Sequence record: OR896820.1
Length of the DNA stretch: 64,000 bases
Reading direction: 5' to 3' (one strand)
Source of the DNA: Escherchia phage Stokescottia
Below the pieces are notes generated by a model. It had not been told where the DNA came from. It did not search any database and worked only from the letters and a program-made list of their open reading frames with translations. The translations under genes and the position numbers were made by a program. Below are positions 7,459 to 14,355 of the stretch, piece after piece. Positions within the stretch are counted from its first letter, which is position 1. The number at the start of each line of letters is the position of its first letter.

Positions 7459-8853
7459 ATGTCTTTACAACTATTACGTAATACTCGAATCTTCGTGTCT
7501 ACGGTTAAGACTGGTCATGATAAGACCAACACGCAAGAGATTCTAGTTCAGGATGATATTTCTTGGGGTCAGGACAGTAACTCAACAGATATTACTGTTA
7601 ATGAAGCTGGTCCGCGTCCAACTCGTGGTTCTAAACGTTTTAATGACTCTTTAAACGCGGCTGAGTGGAGTTTCTCTACTTATATCCTGCCGTATAAAGA
7701 TAAAACTACTAGCAAACAAATTGTTCCTGACTATATGTTATGGCATGCACTTTCTAGTGGTAAAGCTATTAACTTAGAAGGTAATACAGGGGCACACAAT
7801 AACGAAGCTAACTTTATGGTTAACTTCAAAGATAACTCCTATCATGAGTTGGCAATGTTACATATTTATATTCTGACTGATAAAGCATGGAGTTATATCG
7901 ATTCCTGTCAGATTAATCAGGCAGAAATTAACGTTGATATCGAAGATATTGGCCGTGTAACTTGGTCTGGTAATGGTAATCAGCTTATTCCTCTGGATGA
8001 GCAACCATTTGACCCAGATGTAGTAGGTATTGATGATGAAACTTATATGACTATCCAGAGTTCTTATATTAAGAACAAACTTACTATCCTGAAAATTAAG
8101 GATATGGATTCTGGTAAAGCATATGATATTCCTATTACTGGTGGTACTTTCACTATTAATAACAACATCACGTACCTAACCCCGAATATTATGTCTCGTG
8201 TTAATATTCCAATTGGTTCCTTTACTGGTGCTTTTGAATTAACTGGTTCATTAACTGCTTATCTGAATGATAAATCTCTTGGTTCTATGGATCTGTATAA
8301 AGATCTTATCAAAACTCTGAAGGTAGTTAACCGCTTCGAAATTGCTCTAGTACTTGGTGGTGAATACGATGAAGAACGTCCTGCGGCTATTCTGGTAGCT
8401 AAACAAGCACACGTTAATATTCCTACTATTGAAACTGATGATGTACTTGGTACTTCAGTAGAGTTTAAAGCTATTCCATCTGATCTGGATGCTGGTGATG
8501 AAGGTTACTTAGGCTTCTCTAGTAAATATACCAAAACAACTATTAATAACTTGATTGTTAATGGTGATGGTGCTACTAATGCTGTAACCGCAATTACTGT
8601 TAAATCTGCTGGTGATGCTACTACAGTAAACAACTCGGCTACTCTTCAAATGAGTGTTGAAGTTACTCCTTCTTCCGCAAAGAATAAGGAAGTTACTTGG
8701 GCTATCACTGCCGGTGATGCAGCTACTATCAGTGCAACTGGACTGTTAACAGCACATGCTAGTAAAACTGGTGCAGTTACTGTAGAAGCTACTGCTAAAG
8801 ATGGTTCTGGAGTTAAAGGTACTAAACAGATTACTGTAACAACAGGTGGCTAA
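7459..8853 (+). CDS. Tail tube protein (pb6-like) with C-terminal Ig-like (Big_2-type) domain
   Basis: 464 aa; C-terminal Ig-like segment '...TVEATAKDGSGVKGTKQITVTTGG'. Confidence 0.75.
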   Translation: MSLQLLRNTRIFVSTVKTGHDKTNTQEILVQDDISWGQDSNSTDITVNEAGPRPTRGSKRFNDSLNAAEWSFSTYILPYKDKTTSKQIVPDYMLWHALSSGKAINLEGNTGAHNNEANFMVNFKDNSYHELAMLHIYILTDKAWSYIDSCQINQAEINVDIEDIGRVTWSGNGNQLIPLDEQPFDPDVVGIDDETYMTIQSSYIKNKLTILKIKDMDSGKAYDIPITGGTFTINNNITYLTPNIMSRVNIPIGSFTGAFELTGSLTAYLNDKSLGSMDLYKDLIKTLKVVNRFEIALVLGGEYDEERPAAILVAKQAHVNIPTIETDDVLGTSVEFKAIPSDLDAGDEGYLGFSSKYTKTTINNLIVNGDGATNAVTAITVKSAGDATTVNNSATLQMSVEVTPSSAKNKEVTWAITAGDAATISATGLLTAHASKTGAVTVEATAKDGSGVKGTKQITVTTGG

Positions 8854-8857
8854 TTAA

Positions 8858-9757
8858 ATGTACTACTCTCTAATGAGAGAGTCAAAAGTTATAGTTGAGT
8901 ATGATGGTAGGGCATTTCATTTTGATGCCCTATCAAACTATGATATACAGACTTCCTACGAGGAATTCAAGACTCTTCGTAGGACTGTTCATCGTAGAAC
9001 TAACTATGCAGACTCTATTATAAATGCTCAAACTCCCTCTTCTATCTCTCTAGCAGTAAATTTCAGCAATACTCTTACGGAGGCTAACTTCTTTGAATGG
9101 TTAGGTTTTGATAGAAAAGGTAATACTTTCTTACTCCCACTATATAGTAATAATATTGAACCTATTATGTTCAATATCTATATAGTAAATAAAGATAATA
9201 ACTGTGTATATTTTGAAAACTGCTATGTATCTACGGTAGATTTTTCTTTAGATAAGAATATACCAATTCTTAATGTTGGTATTGAATCGGGGAAATTTTC
9301 CGAAGTATCTACGTATAGAGAAGCAGCTTCTATTATACAGGGTGAAGTAATGTCTTATAGCCCAGTAGTAGCTTCTACTAATGGTAGCATCTTACCTGGT
9401 CTTATTTCTGCCTCTTTATCTTTCCAGCAGCAGTGCTCCTGGAGAGAGGATAAGAGTGTTTTTGATATAAATAAAATTTATAATAATAAAAGAGCCTATG
9501 TAACTGAAATGAATGCTTCGGCAACCCTTTCCCTGTATTACTTAAAACGTTTTGCAGGAGATATGGTTTATAATATAGAACCGGAGACAGATGTACCTTT
9601 AACGATAAGAAATAATAATATTTCTATAGATTTTCCTTCAGCACGTATTACAAAACGCCTAGAGTTCTCAGATGTGTATAGAGTTGAGTGGGATATTATA
9701 CCTACTGCTTCTTCAGACCCAGTGAGAATAGATTTCTTTGGAGAAATTAAAAAATGA
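8858..9757 (+). CDS. Minor tail protein (p140-like)
   Basis: 299 aa; synteny between tail tube and chaperone genes. Confidence 0.4.
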   Translation: MYYSLMRESKVIVEYDGRAFHFDALSNYDIQTSYEEFKTLRRTVHRRTNYADSIINAQTPSSISLAVNFSNTLTEANFFEWLGFDRKGNTFLLPLYSNNIEPIMFNIYIVNKDNNCVYFENCYVSTVDFSLDKNIPILNVGIESGKFSEVSTYREAASIIQGEVMSYSPVVASTNGSILPGLISASLSFQQQCSWREDKSVFDINKIYNNKRAYVTEMNASATLSLYYLKRFAGDMVYNIEPETDVPLTIRNNNISIDFPSARITKRLEFSDVYRVEWDIIPTASSDPVRIDFFGEIKK

Positions 9758-10158
9758 TTAATTTAAAAGATATTACTCTTGATACTCGTACTATTACTCT
9801 TTCCTACCCAGGTATGCCGAACTTTAAACTAGAACTTAACTATATGTCTCGTGCTACCTCTAAACGTGTTATTTCTTCTGCTAAACGCGATGAATGGGTT
9901 AACGGTACTTTGGTTCAGGTACAGGATGATGATAAATTCATTGAAGCCTTCGTTGATGCTGCGATTAAAGGTTGGACTGGTTTGACTGTAGGTGACGTTG
10001 AAAAACTGATGCTGATTGAAACAGATGCTGATCCTGAGACTGAAGTTCCTTTTAGTCGCGATAATGCTGTAATGCTTATGCAGAACTCTGCTGCGTTTGA
10101 TTCTTGGATCAACCAGACAGTGTTCCACTTAGACACTTTTCGTAGCCCAAAAGCGTAA
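9754..10158 (+). CDS. Tail assembly chaperone (G-like)
   Basis: 134 aa directly upstream of the tape measure region; GGAGA RBS. Confidence 0.45.
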   Translation: MINLKDITLDTRTITLSYPGMPNFKLELNYMSRATSKRVISSAKRDEWVNGTLVQVQDDDKFIEAFVDAAIKGWTGLTVGDVEKLMLIETDADPETEVPFSRDNAVMLMQNSAAFDSWINQTVFHLDTFRSPKA

Positions 10159-10219
10159 AGAACTTCTAGATGCTGTTGCTGATTTTGCAGATAAATGTAT
10201 TAAAAGCTCAGCATCTAAA

Positions 10220-10588
10220 ATGACCAAACAACAATATTTAATACTTTGTGAGTCAATGGGTATAGAGCCGGATCCTAAGGCTATGCCCGTTGAACTTGAG
10301 GATTTTCCACCTATTGTAGCTATTAGTATGAATATTTATAACAGTCTAATTGACTGTTTCATACCGGGTGACTTTCCTATTTTTATAGGTAAGGATAAGG
10401 CTGCATTAGGTGTTTTATTTGATATTTACGGGATTACTGATCCTATAGAAAAAGAATTTGTTCTACACATTATCAATATATTTGATGCTAAAGCTGTAGA
10501 TGCTGCACGTAAACGTGCTGAGAAGCATAAACCGCAAAACGGGAGGATTCCTAACGTTAAGCCACATGCTAGATCTCGTGCACGGTAA
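10220..10588 (+). CDS. Tail assembly chaperone, downstream ORF in the +1 frame (possible frameshift extension)
   Basis: 122 aa; no Shine-Dalgarno before the ATG; its reading frame stays open back into the 3' end of the preceding ORF. Confidence 0.4.
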   Translation: MTKQQYLILCESMGIEPDPKAMPVELEDFPPIVAISMNIYNSLIDCFIPGDFPIFIGKDKAALGVLFDIYGITDPIEKEFVLHIINIFDAKAVDAARKRAEKHKPQNGRIPNVKPHARSRAR

Positions 10589-10624
10589 AAGTTTCCTCCA
10601 ATGGGCGTTCCACGATGAGGCTTG

Positions 10625-10656
10625 GCTCTGGGTGATTTGCCCAGAGCCTTTTTTAT
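10625..10656 (+). terminator. Rho-independent terminator upstream of the tape measure gene
   Basis: Hairpin GGCTCTGGG-(7 nt)-CCCAGAGCC followed by TTTTTT. Confidence 0.7.
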
Positions 10657-10671
10657 TGGGAAAAATAAAAC

Positions 10672-13600
10672 ATGACTGATAAGCTAATACGAGAATTACT
10701 AATAGACGTTAAACAGAAGGGGGCAACTCGTACTGCAAAGTCTATTGAAAACGTATCTGATGCATTGGAAAACGCTGCTGCTGCTTCCGAACTGACAAAT
10801 GAGCAGTTAGGTAAAATGCCCAAAACTCTTTATTCCATTGAGAGGGCAGCAGACAGAGCAGCGAAAAGTCTTACTAAAATGCAGGCAAGCAGAGGCATGC
10901 TTAGTGTTACTAAATCTATAAATGATATAGGAGCTAAGTTAGATGATCTCGCTATTACAATGATTGAAGTAGCAGATAAGTTAGAAGTCGGATTTGATGG
11001 GGTTTCTAGATCTGTTAAAACAATGGGTAATGATGTTGCAGCTGCAACAGAAAAAGTCCAGGATAGATTATATGATACTAATAGAGCATTAGGTGGCACA
11101 GCTAGAGGTTTTAATGATACTGCTGGTGCTGCTGGCAGAGCTTCTAGAGCTATTGGTAATACTTCTGGTTCAGCACGTGGTGCAACTCGTGATTTTGCGG
11201 CAATGGCTAAGATCGGTGGTAGTTTACCTATTATGTACGCAGCTCTTGCTTCCAACATCTTCGTTTTGCAATCTGCATTTGAACAACTTAAACTAGGTGA
11301 TCAGCTAAATCGTCTAGAAAAATTTGGTGTTATAGTAGGTACTCAGACAGGTACTCCTGTTCAGACCCTTGCTAGATCACTACAAGAAGCTGCTGGATAT
11401 GCTATTTCTTTTGAGGAAGCAATGAGACAGGCATCTTCAGCATCTGCTTATGGATTTGATGCCGAACAACTTAATAAATTTGGTTTAGTAGCTCGTCGTG
11501 CGGCTGCTGTTCTTGGCGTTGATATGACTGATGCACTTAACCGTGTAATTAAGGGCGTATCTAAACAAGAAATCGAACTTCTGGATGAACTTGGTGTCAC
11601 CATCCGTCTTAATGACGCATACGCTGATTATGTTAAACAGTTAAATGCTGCAAACACAGGTATAACATATAATGTTAATAGTCTTACCACTTTCCAGAAG
11701 CAACAAGCATACGCTAACGCGGTAATTGCTGAATCTACTAAGCGGTTTGGCTACCTAGATGAAGTACTACGTGCAACTCCATGGGAGCAATTTGCTGCTA
11801 ATGCAGATGCTGCACTAAGAAAAATACAACAAGCTGCTGCTAAGTATTTAGGGCCAGTAATTGATGCTATCAACACAGTATTTTATACATCTCAGGCTTC
11901 TATATCTGCTGAGGCAGCTAGAGCTCAAGAAAAAACTAATAGACAGATAGACCCTACCAACGTTGGTGCTGTTGCTTTAAGTTTAGCTGCTTCTGAAGAA
12001 GGCTATAATAAAGCTCTAGATATGTATAAGGAATCTCTTGATAAGCGTAATAAGCTAAAATCTGAGTTCGATAAACGAATGGAACAAGCAGATTTCTATA
12101 CAAAACTAGCTATACGTCAAGTTGGTGAAGGTATTCCTGTTGGTCTTGCAGCAGCAGGTGCTTCGGAGGCCAATAAGCAATTTGTAGCAGAAACTGCAGC
12201 TATGGGTCTACAAGTAACTAGACTTGGTAAGGAAGTAGAGGATTCTACAGAGAATCTCAATGCTTGGAAATCAGCGTATCAAGCTGCTGGGGCTGCTGCT
12301 GCAAAGGCTAGTCCAGAGTTTCAGAAGCAAATTAATTTACAGAGAGATACTACTGATCCTGATGCTGTATACGATTTTAACTCTACTGTATTAAAAGGGC
12401 TAACTGAGCAGCAGAAAGCATACAATCAGACTAAGAAAACTGCTAGTGACTTAGCTAATGATATACAGAACGTTGCTCAGAATACAGATACTGCTGCTAA
12501 AACTAGTGCTACTTTAGCAGATGCTATAAAAAACATAGAATCTCTATCTCTAGGTACTGGTAAGAGTGCTGATGAGTACGTTAAAAATCTTAACCTAGGC
12601 TACAACACTCTGTCTGAAATGAAAACTGCATCTCAGGCTCTATCTGAGTATGTTAAACTAACTGGTAATGAAACTAAAAATCAGTTAGCAGTCCAACAGA
12701 AGATAGCTGATGTATATAACCAAACTAAGGATAAAGAAAAAGCACAGGAAGCCGGTAGGCGTTTAGAACTCCAACAGTTAGAAGAGCAAGAAGCTGCTTT
12801 ACGCCGTGTTCTTCAAACAAACCAGGGAAATAAAGCTGTTGAGAAAGAAATTGAAAAAATTCAGCTGGAGAAACTTAAACTTACTAATCAGGGTATGGAG
12901 GCTCAGAAGAAAGTTAAGGATTATACAGATAAAATTCTTGGTGTAGATCGTGAGATAGCTCTCTTAAATAACCGTACTATGACAGATACTCAGTATCGTC
13001 TAGCACAGTTAAATCTTGAATTGACCATTGAAAAAGAGAAGTACGAATGGTACACAAAACAAGCTGATAAACAGAAAGAGGCTGAACAGTCTAGACGTTC
13101 TCAAGCCCAAATTGAACGTGAAATATGGAAATTCCGTCAGGATCAGCAAGCTGAAATGACCAGTAAAAGGCAAGAAGCCTTTGAAAATACTCTAACTTCC
13201 ATGTTCCCTCTGGCAGGGGAAATGCAAAAAATGGAAATGCAGTTAGATTTTTATACTCAGATGAAAGAACTTACTAAAGGTAATGCTAACGAGCAAATGC
13301 GCTGGAATGCTGAAATAGCCAAGACAAGGGCTCAGATGTCGGCTTTAACAGCACAACGTAATGCTCAGATGCAGCAACAGGTAGGGTCTTCTTTAGGTGC
13401 TGTGTATACTCCTACAACTGGACTATCTGGAAAAGACAAAGATTTTGCTGATATGGGAAATAGACTGGCTTCTTATGATCAGGCAATCTCTAAATTATCT
13501 GAGCTAAACTCCGAAGCAACCGCTGTAGCTCAAAGCATGGGTAATTTAACTAATGCTATGATTCATTTCTCCATGGGGTCTTTAGACACTACTTCCTTAA

Positions 13601-14355
13601 TTGCTGCTGGTATGCAATCCGTATCCTCGATGATTCAATATAGTACTAGTCAACAGGTTAGTGCAATTGATCAGGCTATTGCAGCAGAGCAGAAACGTGA
13701 TGGTAAATCAGAAGCATCTAAAGCTAAGTTGAAGAAGTTGGAAGCTGAAAAGCTGAAGATTCAACAAGACGCAGCTAAGAAGCAGATTATTATCCAAACT
13801 GCAGTAGCTGTAATGCAGGCGGCAACAGCTGTTCCATACCCGTTCTCTATCCCTCTGATGGTAGCGGCAGGTTTAGCAGGTGCTCTAGCCCTCGCCCAAG
13901 CATCTTCTGCATCGAGTATGTCGAGTATTGCTGATTCGGGAGCTGATACAACTAGTTACTTAACCTTAGGAGAGCGTCAAAAGAATATAGATGTGTCCAT
14001 GTCTGCTAATGCAGGTGAACTATCTTATATTCGTGGCGATCAAGGTATAGGTAGTGCCAACTCTTTCGTTCCTCGTGCTGAGGGTGGTAATATGTACCCA
14101 GGGGTTAGCTACCAAATGGGTGAACATGGTACAGAAGTAGTTACCCCTATGGTTCCTATGAAAGCTACGCCTAATGATGAGCTAAAAACCTCATCTAACT
14201 CAACTTCAGGAAGACCTATCATCTTGAATATTAGTGCTATGGATGCTGCAAGTTTTAGAGAGTTTGCTTCTAGTAATAGTAGCGCTCTAAGAGACGCAGT
14301 AGAATTAGCTCTGAATGAGAACGGTGCTAGTCTGAAAACATTAGGAAATTCTTAA
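10672..14355 (+). CDS. Tape measure protein (pb2-like)
   Basis: 1227 aa, Ala/Gln-rich coiled coil, hydrophobic segment near the C-terminus; followed by a hairpin terminator. Confidence 0.85.
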   Translation: MTDKLIRELLIDVKQKGATRTAKSIENVSDALENAAAASELTNEQLGKMPKTLYSIERAADRAAKSLTKMQASRGMLSVTKSINDIGAKLDDLAITMIEVADKLEVGFDGVSRSVKTMGNDVAAATEKVQDRLYDTNRALGGTARGFNDTAGAAGRASRAIGNTSGSARGATRDFAAMAKIGGSLPIMYAALASNIFVLQSAFEQLKLGDQLNRLEKFGVIVGTQTGTPVQTLARSLQEAAGYAISFEEAMRQASSASAYGFDAEQLNKFGLVARRAAAVLGVDMTDALNRVIKGVSKQEIELLDELGVTIRLNDAYADYVKQLNAANTGITYNVNSLTTFQKQQAYANAVIAESTKRFGYLDEVLRATPWEQFAANADAALRKIQQAAAKYLGPVIDAINTVFYTSQASISAEAARAQEKTNRQIDPTNVGAVALSLAASEEGYNKALDMYKESLDKRNKLKSEFDKRMEQADFYTKLAIRQVGEGIPVGLAAAGASEANKQFVAETAAMGLQVTRLGKEVEDSTENLNAWKSAYQAAGAAAAKASPEFQKQINLQRDTTDPDAVYDFNSTVLKGLTEQQKAYNQTKKTASDLANDIQNVAQNTDTAAKTSATLADAIKNIESLSLGTGKSADEYVKNLNLGYNTLSEMKTASQALSEYVKLTGNETKNQLAVQQKIADVYNQTKDKEKAQEAGRRLELQQLEEQEAALRRVLQTNQGNKAVEKEIEKIQLEKLKLTNQGMEAQKKVKDYTDKILGVDREIALLNNRTMTDTQYRLAQLNLELTIEKEKYEWYTKQADKQKEAEQSRRSQAQIEREIWKFRQDQQAEMTSKRQEAFENTLTSMFPLAGEMQKMEMQLDFYTQMKELTKGNANEQMRWNAEIAKTRAQMSALTAQRNAQMQQQVGSSLGAVYTPTTGLSGKDKDFADMGNRLASYDQAISKLSELNSEATAVAQSMGNLTNAMIHFSMGSLDTTSLIAAGMQSVSSMIQYSTSQQVSAIDQAIAAEQKRDGKSEASKAKLKKLEAEKLKIQQDAAKKQIIIQTAVAVMQAATAVPYPFSIPLMVAAGLAGALALAQASSASSMSSIADSGADTTSYLTLGERQKNIDVSMSANAGELSYIRGDQGIGSANSFVPRAEGGNMYPGVSYQMGEHGTEVVTPMVPMKATPNDELKTSSNSTSGRPIILNISAMDAASFREFASSNSSALRDAVELALNENGASLKTLGNS

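Follow-up and report, generated by a model that had tools for sequence, protein, structure and literature searches.

How does a T5-like phage produce the second of its two tail assembly chaperone proteins, when the open reading frame (ORF) that encodes it lies in a different frame from the ORF just upstream and has practically no Shine-Dalgarno (SD) sequence? The question is posed by phage Stokescottia (OR896820.1), of which a stretch of 64,000 nucleotides (nt), here called the window, was analysed. It carries two small adjacent ORFs, of 134 amino acids (aa; ORF1) and 122 aa (ORF2), directly upstream of the tape measure gene. We propose that these very probably represent the G and T parts of a pair of the lambda G/GT type, joined by a +1 slip of the ribosome at the sequence UUU_CGU close to the end of ORF1; the proposal is built on comparative sequence analysis. 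The features concerned are the following:

9754–10158, plus strand: ORF1, G-like tail assembly chaperone, 134 aa, frame 1, read by standard decoding to the stop codon TAA at 10156–10158
10130–10132, plus strand: TAG in frame 2 (+1), which bounds on its 5' side the stretch where a shift is permitted
10138–10143, plus strand: candidate +1 shift site UUU_CGU
10142–10219, plus strand: linker read in frame 2, VAQKRKELLDAVADFADKCIKSSASK, labelled intergenic in the public records inspected
10220–10588, plus strand: ORF2, T-like domain, 122 aa as annotated, frame 2 (+1 relative to ORF1), stop codon TAA at 10586–10588
9754–10588, plus strand: predicted GT-like frameshift fusion of 277 aa, in which 9754–10140 (129 aa, ending ...HLDTF) would be joined to 10142–10585 (148 aa, starting VAQKRK...)

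The 1-kb region of the window around these features shares 99.3% identity with Escherichia phage Lindwurm and more than 80% with 443 T5-like genomes; the phage is T5-like (Tequintavirus). The counterparts in T5 itself are T5.143, the homolog of ORF1, and T5.142, each of which is described as a tail assembly chaperone and given as a separate coding sequence (CDS).

Frame relationship of the two ORFs

An earlier inspection of the letters of the window alone (the sequence-only reading) had proposed that a programmed +1 frameshift joins the two chaperone ORFs in the manner of G/GT. This proposal is supported by conservation of the frame relationship, by an invariant site, by coding constraint on the linker and by homologs in marine phages that employ a −1 shift. 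The ORF coordinates and the +1 relation of ORF2 to ORF1 were correctly given by that reading, and its remark that the gap between the ORFs translates in frame 2 into plausible protein was confirmed (...KRKELLDAVADFADKCIKSSASK-MTKQQ). Its estimate of the overlap was wrong. Frame 2 was said to be open from position 10073 and to overlap the last 28 codons of ORF1; it contains stop codons at 10070 (TAA) and at 10130–10132 (TAG) and is open only from 10133, so that the overlap with ORF1 amounts to 26 nt with the stop codon of ORF1 and 23 nt without it, or about eight codons. Because of the TAG at 10130–10132, any shift is confined to positions 10133–10155.

The open stretch is not remarkable by itself. 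Given nine frame-2 stops in the 126 upstream codons of ORF1, 29 stop-free codons (10133–10219) would be expected by chance in about 12% of cases, and the significance of the arrangement therefore rests on comparative data.

A conserved UUU_CGN site in the Demerecviridae

A tblastn search with the hypothetical fusion protein (joined at AAA_G) retrieved approximately 900 phage records, essentially the family Demerecviridae. Fifty Demerecviridae loci representing 16 lineages were compared: the T5-like phages, Epseptimavirus, Sugarlandvirus Shiner, Erwinia phage KEY with Pantoea phage AAS21, Enterobacter phage KKP_3711, Vibrio phages X1, Ceto, D51, D378 and phi3, Proteus phage M4H10_20, Providencia phages PSTCR5 and PR1, Pectobacterium phages DU_PP_V and My1, Serratia phage Slocum, and one metagenomic contig of 106 kb. 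The deduced fusions share 25–91% identity with that of the window. Conservation of the frame relationship across T5-like phages had been named by the sequence-only reading as a means of checking its proposal; ORF2 proved to be in the +1 frame relative to ORF1 in 16/16 lineages. The distance from the ORF1 stop codon to the annotated start of ORF2 varies between lineages from −38 to +94 nt.

Within 10073–10158, where the sequence-only reading had suggested looking for a slip site, a candidate was found at 10138–10143. All 50 loci contain exactly one in-frame TTT_CG(T/A), located 0–11 codons before the ORF1 stop, and in every locus the +1 frame remains open for at least 130 codons past this sequence. 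Twelve lineages have CGT after TTT and four have CGA, and Pectobacterium phages My1 and DU_PP_V possess the exact sequence TCC_TTT_CGT. In Vibrio phage D378 and Pectobacterium phage My1 the ORF1 stop codon directly follows CGT and a +1 stop is present two codons upstream, so that the overlap is reduced to 11 nt (ACAACTTTCGT in D378 and ACTCCTTTCGT in My1). In these two phages UUU to UUC is thus the sole possible one-base-forward re-pairing.

At this site the Phe codon is invariably TTT and the Arg codon invariably CGT or CGA. Among the 11 lineages sampled for codon usage, TTT accounts for 39–67% of Phe codons, and CGT and CGA for 12–57% of Arg codons. In most of them Arg is encoded most often by AGA, and AGA and CGT dominate.

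A +1-frame stop codon (TAG or TAA) was also observed exactly two codons upstream of TTC in 9/16 lineages. It arises from a conserved Leu or Ile codon (TTA, CTA or ATA) followed by a purine, and may be incidental or may serve to halt ribosomes that have shifted prematurely.

Coding constraint on the linker

The linker was investigated in 32 distinct haplotypes from T5-like and Epseptimavirus phages, which could be aligned without gaps. Between 10159 and 10219, variation is seen in 5/20, 1/20 and 15/21 columns at the first, second and third codon positions of frame 2, respectively, an excess at the third position that is highly significant (Fisher p=2.9e-5). This resembles the pattern in the two ORFs, for which the corresponding values are 26/127, 4/126 and 87/126 (ORF1) and 18/122, 12/122 and 75/122 (ORF2). 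The 32 haplotypes specify only four linker peptides, with neither stop codons nor indels, and one Leu codon has changed from CTT to TTA, a double change. Judged by this pattern of variation, the linker (10159–10219) behaves as translated sequence under purifying selection in frame 2. In distant lineages it is still conserved at the protein level, down to 25–56% identity; by way of example, VAQKRKELLDAVADFADKCIK in the window corresponds to VAQNRNLLLKEIDAFAERCVK in Shiner.

No ATG, GTG or TTG is present in frame 2 between 10133 and 10219, and consequently this region can be translated only by ribosomes arriving from another frame. The alignment also indicates where they would change frame. A variable base just upstream of TTT, at 10134, is synonymous in frame 1 (GAC/GAT); downstream, changes at 10147 and 10153 alter the frame-1 residue (P/S and A/T) and are silent in frame 2 (GCC/GCT and AAG/AAA). 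Since the constraint switches between 10134 and 10147, the shift is bracketed to 10135–10146, which comprises the codons ACT TTT CGT AGC.

Marine relatives with a −1 shift

Homologs of both ORF1 and ORF2 were discovered in a large group of uncultured marine phages represented by metagenome contigs (loci L046–L125), the BLASTP match to ORF1 having an E-value of 8e-28. In these phages ORF2 is in the −1 frame. Exactly one copy of GAA_AAT_TTT_A, which contains the canonical −1 heptamer A_AAU_UUU, is present in 80/80 loci; in all 70 with a complete upstream ORF the heptamer is in register and ORF2 is in the −1 frame. The marine ORF1 product terminates in ...DLENFTGNK*.

In a joint alignment the Phe encoded by UUU of the marine heptamer falls in an invariant column with F129 of the window, which is the junction residue in both groups. 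The residue after this Phe is Thr (ORF1) or Tyr (fusion) in the marine group, and Arg (zero frame) or Val/Glu (+1 frame) in the T5-like group. The Thr and Tyr of the marine proteins imply that Arg, Val or Glu is not required here by the proteins, and hence that CG after TTT is not a protein requirement across the family. From these alignments, the invariant CG following TTT is best read as part of a recoding signal.

Protein family searches

ORF1 matches positions 12–139 of PHROG 313 (tail assembly chaperone; 258 positions) with an E-value of 1.3e-33, and ORF2 matches PHROG 3914 as well as positions 170–258 of PHROG 313. The 277-aa fusion aligns to PHROG 313 in one continuous stretch, its residues 1–262 covering positions 12–258 of 258 with a score of 183 bits. 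An exhaustive HMMER search of 1.84 billion representatives with the extended ORF2 yielded 146 clusters, 144 of which are 67–178 aa in length. By size and architecture, no in-frame fusion of ORF1 and ORF2 was found among these 146 clusters, which suggests that the two-frame arrangement is maintained and not merely tolerated. The two longer proteins, P0006 (1455 aa) and P0142 (554 aa), match in eight and four separate short stretches, respectively (query residues ~89–130 and 36–77); these matches suggest a repeated motif, similar to the T domain, in unrelated large proteins.

Other searches added little. Pfam and NCBIfam contained no match for the window proteins, and a weak match to Phage_TAC_5 (E=0.006) was obtained for two of eight family members. 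A sequence search of the PDB revealed no meaningful relative, and a single-sequence AlphaFold model of ORF1 was unusable (predicted local distance difference test score 33.6). The queries P0035 and P0062 had no matches among viral contigs. A word-index protein search with the fusion gave no hit at E<=0.001 even though some 900 genomes and 146 clusters encode relatives, and its outcome is uninformative.

Could ORF2 be translated independently?

One alternative is that the two ORFs encode independent chaperones, with ORF2 initiated at ATG 10220 or ATG 10256 by re-initiation or leaky scanning and the open frame upstream being incidental. ATG codons are indeed present at both positions, all annotated public records inspected treat the ORFs as separate genes, and the annotators of Lindwurm chose ATG 10256. 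The absence of an SD sequence before ATG 10220, to which the sequence-only reading had drawn attention, was borne out by the calculated energy of the anti-SD duplex, which is −0.1 kcal/mol as compared with −4.2 to −9.1 kcal/mol for nine neighbouring genes. Nor is the position of this codon conserved: in other lineages the residue aligned to Met-10220 is Ile, Val, Leu or Phe, and the +1 frame has its first ATG at a lineage-dependent distance of 24–48 codons downstream of the site. A fair SD sequence precedes an ATG deeper in the +1 frame in some lineages (−6.6 kcal/mol in Shiner and −6.4 kcal/mol in D378), and low-level independent initiation could coexist with frameshifting and make a minor contribution.

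Independent initiation as the sole route leaves unexplained why the 61-nt spacer and the overlap should be under purifying selection in frame 2 with no start codon in them, why the +1 relation and TTT_CGN should hold without exception in 16 lineages although the length of the spacer changes, and why relatives with a −1 arrangement should carry a textbook heptamer at the same codon. We consider it very unlikely, and propose that the ORF2 domain is produced chiefly or exclusively as the C-terminal portion of a fusion.

Other routes to a fusion

Even if a fusion is made, it might arise at a different site or by a different route: through a +1 slip of tRNA-Lys at AAA_G (10150–10153), through a −2 shift, or through out-of-frame binding of Val-tRNA to GUA without slippage in the peptidyl (P) site. 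AAA_G (AAA_A in Epseptimavirus) does lie inside the permitted 10133–10155, and tRNA-Lys reads both AAA and AAG. The sequence is, however, absent from most lineages and not conserved beyond T5-like genomes; Shiner has AAA_T, and ORF1 of KEY, X1, Ceto, D51, D378 and My1 stops before such a codon. Moreover, 10147 and 10153 already behave as third positions of frame 2, which places the shift upstream of both. A −2 shift has a precedent in the G/GT pair of phage Mu (PMC3498833; PMC5009743), but here it would need tRNA-Phe to re-pair with CUU or ACU, neither of which pairs. As to the last of these routes, the present data fit P-site slippage and occlusion of the aminoacyl (A) site equally. Taken as a group, these routes are very unlikely in comparison with a slip at UUU_CGU.

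Transcriptional slippage, or a sequencing or assembly error, whereby a single gene would have had a T inserted into or deleted from a TTTT run, can hardly be entertained: the window does have four consecutive T residues (ACT TTT CGT), but most lineages have only three (ACC TTT, AAC TTT or GGG TTT), a run on which a polymerase would hardly slip, being much too short, and the frame break occurs in 50/50 Demerecviridae loci from many independently sequenced genomes, with the size and architecture of an in-frame fusion in 0/146 family clusters.

One further candidate was tried and rejected. C_CCA_AAA at 10146–10152 is formally a canonical −1 heptamer in the ORF1 frame; frame 3 stops at 10167, and many close relatives have CTCAAAA.

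Proposed mechanism

Under the preferred reading, a +1 slip at UUU_CGU, most ribosomes would translate ORF1 to its stop codon and release the 134-aa G-like protein. In a minority, at the point where the P site holds UUU at 10138–10140 (Phe129) and CGU occupies the A site, peptidyl-tRNA-Phe (anticodon GAA) would slip forward by one base from UUU to UUC (10139–10141), gaining a better G-C pair at the third position. The next codon would then be GUA (10142–10144), and translation would continue in frame 2 through the linker and ORF2 to TAA 10586–10588, giving a G-T fusion of 277 aa. The predicted junction reads ...HLDTF-VAQKRK, for which Asp-N digestion should yield the junction peptide DTFVAQKRKELL; VAQK and ELLDAVADFADK would be peptides of the linker. 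We infer a P-site slip rather than out-of-frame binding in the A site, and the efficiency of the shift is presumably a few per cent.

In pairs of the G/GT type the short protein and the fusion are produced in a ratio of about 30:1, both are needed for tail assembly, and they are absent from virions. If the pair acts as in lambda, the tape measure protein would be coated with the short protein in many copies, the T domain of the rare fusion would recruit the tail tube protein, and neither product would be found in the virion. This division of labour between short protein and fusion is inferred from the lambda system. A GT-like product would be well served by a shift of low efficiency, at a few per cent without stimulation.

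Several observations weigh against a slip at UUU_CGU, the first being that the 277-aa product is a prediction from sequence. CGU is not a rare codon in E. coli (20.2 per 1000; PMC3498833) but one of the commonest for Arg. As it is both common and well decoded there, the usual stimulus of a slow A-site codon is not evident, and only the four lineages with CGA would fit. Conserved stimulators were not located either. There is no conserved SD-like element upstream, Vibrio phage phi3 alone having GGTGGG beside TTT. The sequence-only reading had suggested a search of 10073–10158 for a stimulatory structure; no suitably placed one was found downstream of the site, the sole hairpin (10167–10217) beginning 29 nt after UUU, which is too far from a ribosome at the site, and it was rejected as a stimulator for this reason. 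The 64-kb window contains no phage tRNA genes by which decoding might be biased. A reasonably good SD sequence accompanies an ATG 24–50 codons into the +1 frame in some lineages, and a shorter independent T protein is possible in these. The annotated public records inspected show two separate CDSs or ORF1 alone, with no join, and according to a genome note (PMC6256483, citing Zivanovic 2014) the T5 tape measure chaperone is without a predicted frameshift signal. Finally, the lineages are related and the counts are not fully independent; yet synonymous sites are saturated at these distances.

The hairpin (CUAGAUGCUG...CAGCAUCUA) is contained in the linker, stops 2 nt short of ATG 10220 and has a z-score of −2.2 relative to shuffled sequences. 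A compensatory change from U-A to C-G at 10174/10210 was observed in locus L030, and a change from A to G in another relative gives a G-U pair. It might occlude internal initiation at 10220.

Neighbouring genes and signals

The chaperone ORFs are embedded in a block of tail genes, with the following neighbours:

7459–8853: gene for a pb6-like tail tube protein
8858–9757: gene for a minor tail protein of 299 aa
10624–10657: rho-independent terminator, between ORF2 and the tape measure gene
10672–14355, plus strand: gene for a pb2-like tape measure/pore-forming tail tip protein of 1227 aa, the presumed client of the chaperones

The gene order tail tube, minor tail, ORF1, ORF2, tape measure is the same in all annotated relatives. 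ORF1 has an SD sequence of its own (GGAG), and its start overlaps the stop codon of the 299-aa minor tail gene (ATGA, 9754–9757), which is a usual sign of translational coupling. The terminator is a strong one, with an 11-bp stem (GGCTCTGGG...CCCAGAGCC) followed by TTTTTTATT, and is annotated as such in Lindwurm and T5; its presence implies a partial uncoupling of the chaperone genes from the tape measure gene in transcription. In T5 (NC_005859; locus L040, 651–1403) T5.141, a gene encoding a 250-aa endonuclease, is inserted between ORF2 and pb2. This insert is lacking in the window (10589–10671) and in most relatives.

Novelty and significance

Frameshifting in G/GT chaperones is a familiar phenomenon, of which HSTV-2 and Mu have already supplied +1 or −2 variants. 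What appears to be new is the site and direction of the shift for T5 and the Demerecviridae as a whole, the identity of the cassette with the UUU_CGN motif otherwise described from eukaryotic viruses, and the use by homologous phages of the same Phe codon for a −1 shift. A literature search, in which Zivanovic 2014 was not covered so that an earlier mention is possible, revealed no report that T5-like chaperones use a +1 frameshift.

As a model siphophage, T5 is actively studied with regard to the structure and assembly of its tail. If the proposal is correct, T5 and the approximately 900 sequenced Demerecviridae would be no exception to the near-universal G/GT rule, the annotations of these phages should carry the 277-aa fusion, and the same protein would be needed in the reconstitution or engineering of T5 tails. 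It would also represent a family-wide, naturally selected use in bacteria of UUU_CGN, so far known from influenza A and other eukaryotic viruses. Because the host reads CGU efficiently, the T5-like phages would offer a direct test of why UUU_CGN shifts, and the homologous relatives with a −1 shift would provide a natural swap comparison for the +1 site.

Comparison with known systems

As in phage lambda, the two small ORFs of the window follow the tail tube gene and directly precede the tape measure gene, the shift would take place a few codons short of the first ORF's end, and the second ORF has no conserved start of its own. The sizes are also similar, namely 134 and 277 aa here and 140 and 279 aa for lambda gpG and gpGT, respectively. 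The two systems differ in that lambda uses a −1 tandem slip at X_XXY_YYZ and the window would use a single +1 P-site slip at UUU_CGN. Lambda G and T have no detectable sequence similarity to the window proteins, and function and stoichiometry are assigned here by analogy only. According to the summary in PMC5009743, which draws on Levin 1993 and Xu 2004 for lambda gpG/gpGT, the G/GT frameshift is conserved in long-tailed phages. Tailed phages use −1, −2 or +1 shifts for this pair (PMC5009743). Phage Mu (−2) and the haloarchaeal virus HSTV-2 (probable +1) are similar to the T5-like phages in that they show access to the +1 frame to be tolerated in a G/GT arrangement; the Mu shift occurs at a different kind of site and HSTV-2 is archaeal, and neither is related to T5.

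In bacteria UUU_Ynn is particularly liable to +1 shifting (PMC5009743). The examples cited there include an error site in E. coli argI and the YopN-TyeA genes of Yersinia, both of which resemble the present site in that a +1 shift occurs on UUU followed by a pyrimidine with no adjacent stop codon; in the latter case the shift, as here, fuses two adjacent ORFs. The one is an error site and the other concerns a secretion regulator, rather than virus assembly chaperones, and conservation throughout a family of viruses is not known for either.

The closest parallel to the sequence itself is in influenza A virus, where UCC_UUU_CGU was proven by mass spectrometry to be the +1 site used for PA-X (PMC3498833); UUU_CGN sites are also present in amalgaviruses and chronic bee paralysis virus (Firth 2012, PMC3498833). 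The core UUU_CGU is identical, the full influenza sequence is matched by My1 and DU_PP_V, and the mechanism proposed is the same, tRNA-Phe moving from UUU to UUC while the A site holds an Arg CGN codon. Both lack obvious flanking stimulators, which implies low efficiency. They differ in that one site is used by eukaryotic ribosomes and the other would be used by bacterial ones, and the genes and products are unrelated. Furthermore, CGU is rare in vertebrates and common in E. coli, so that the rationale of a rare A-site codon does not carry over.

The marine phages provide the complementary case, with homologous chaperones and a junction at the same aligned Phe (F129). In their A_AAU_UUU heptamer UUU is the A-site codon of a −1 shift, whereas UUU in the window would be the P-site codon. 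Tentatively, these comparisons raise the possibility that one chaperone family has switched the same Phe UUU between −1 A-site and +1 P-site use, keeping two products in both cases, and that UUU_CGN may constitute a minimal +1 cassette on bacterial and eukaryotic ribosomes alike, acting not through codon rarity but through an intrinsic property of peptidyl-tRNA-Phe beside CGN, which is read in both domains by an inosine-containing tRNA-Arg(ICG).

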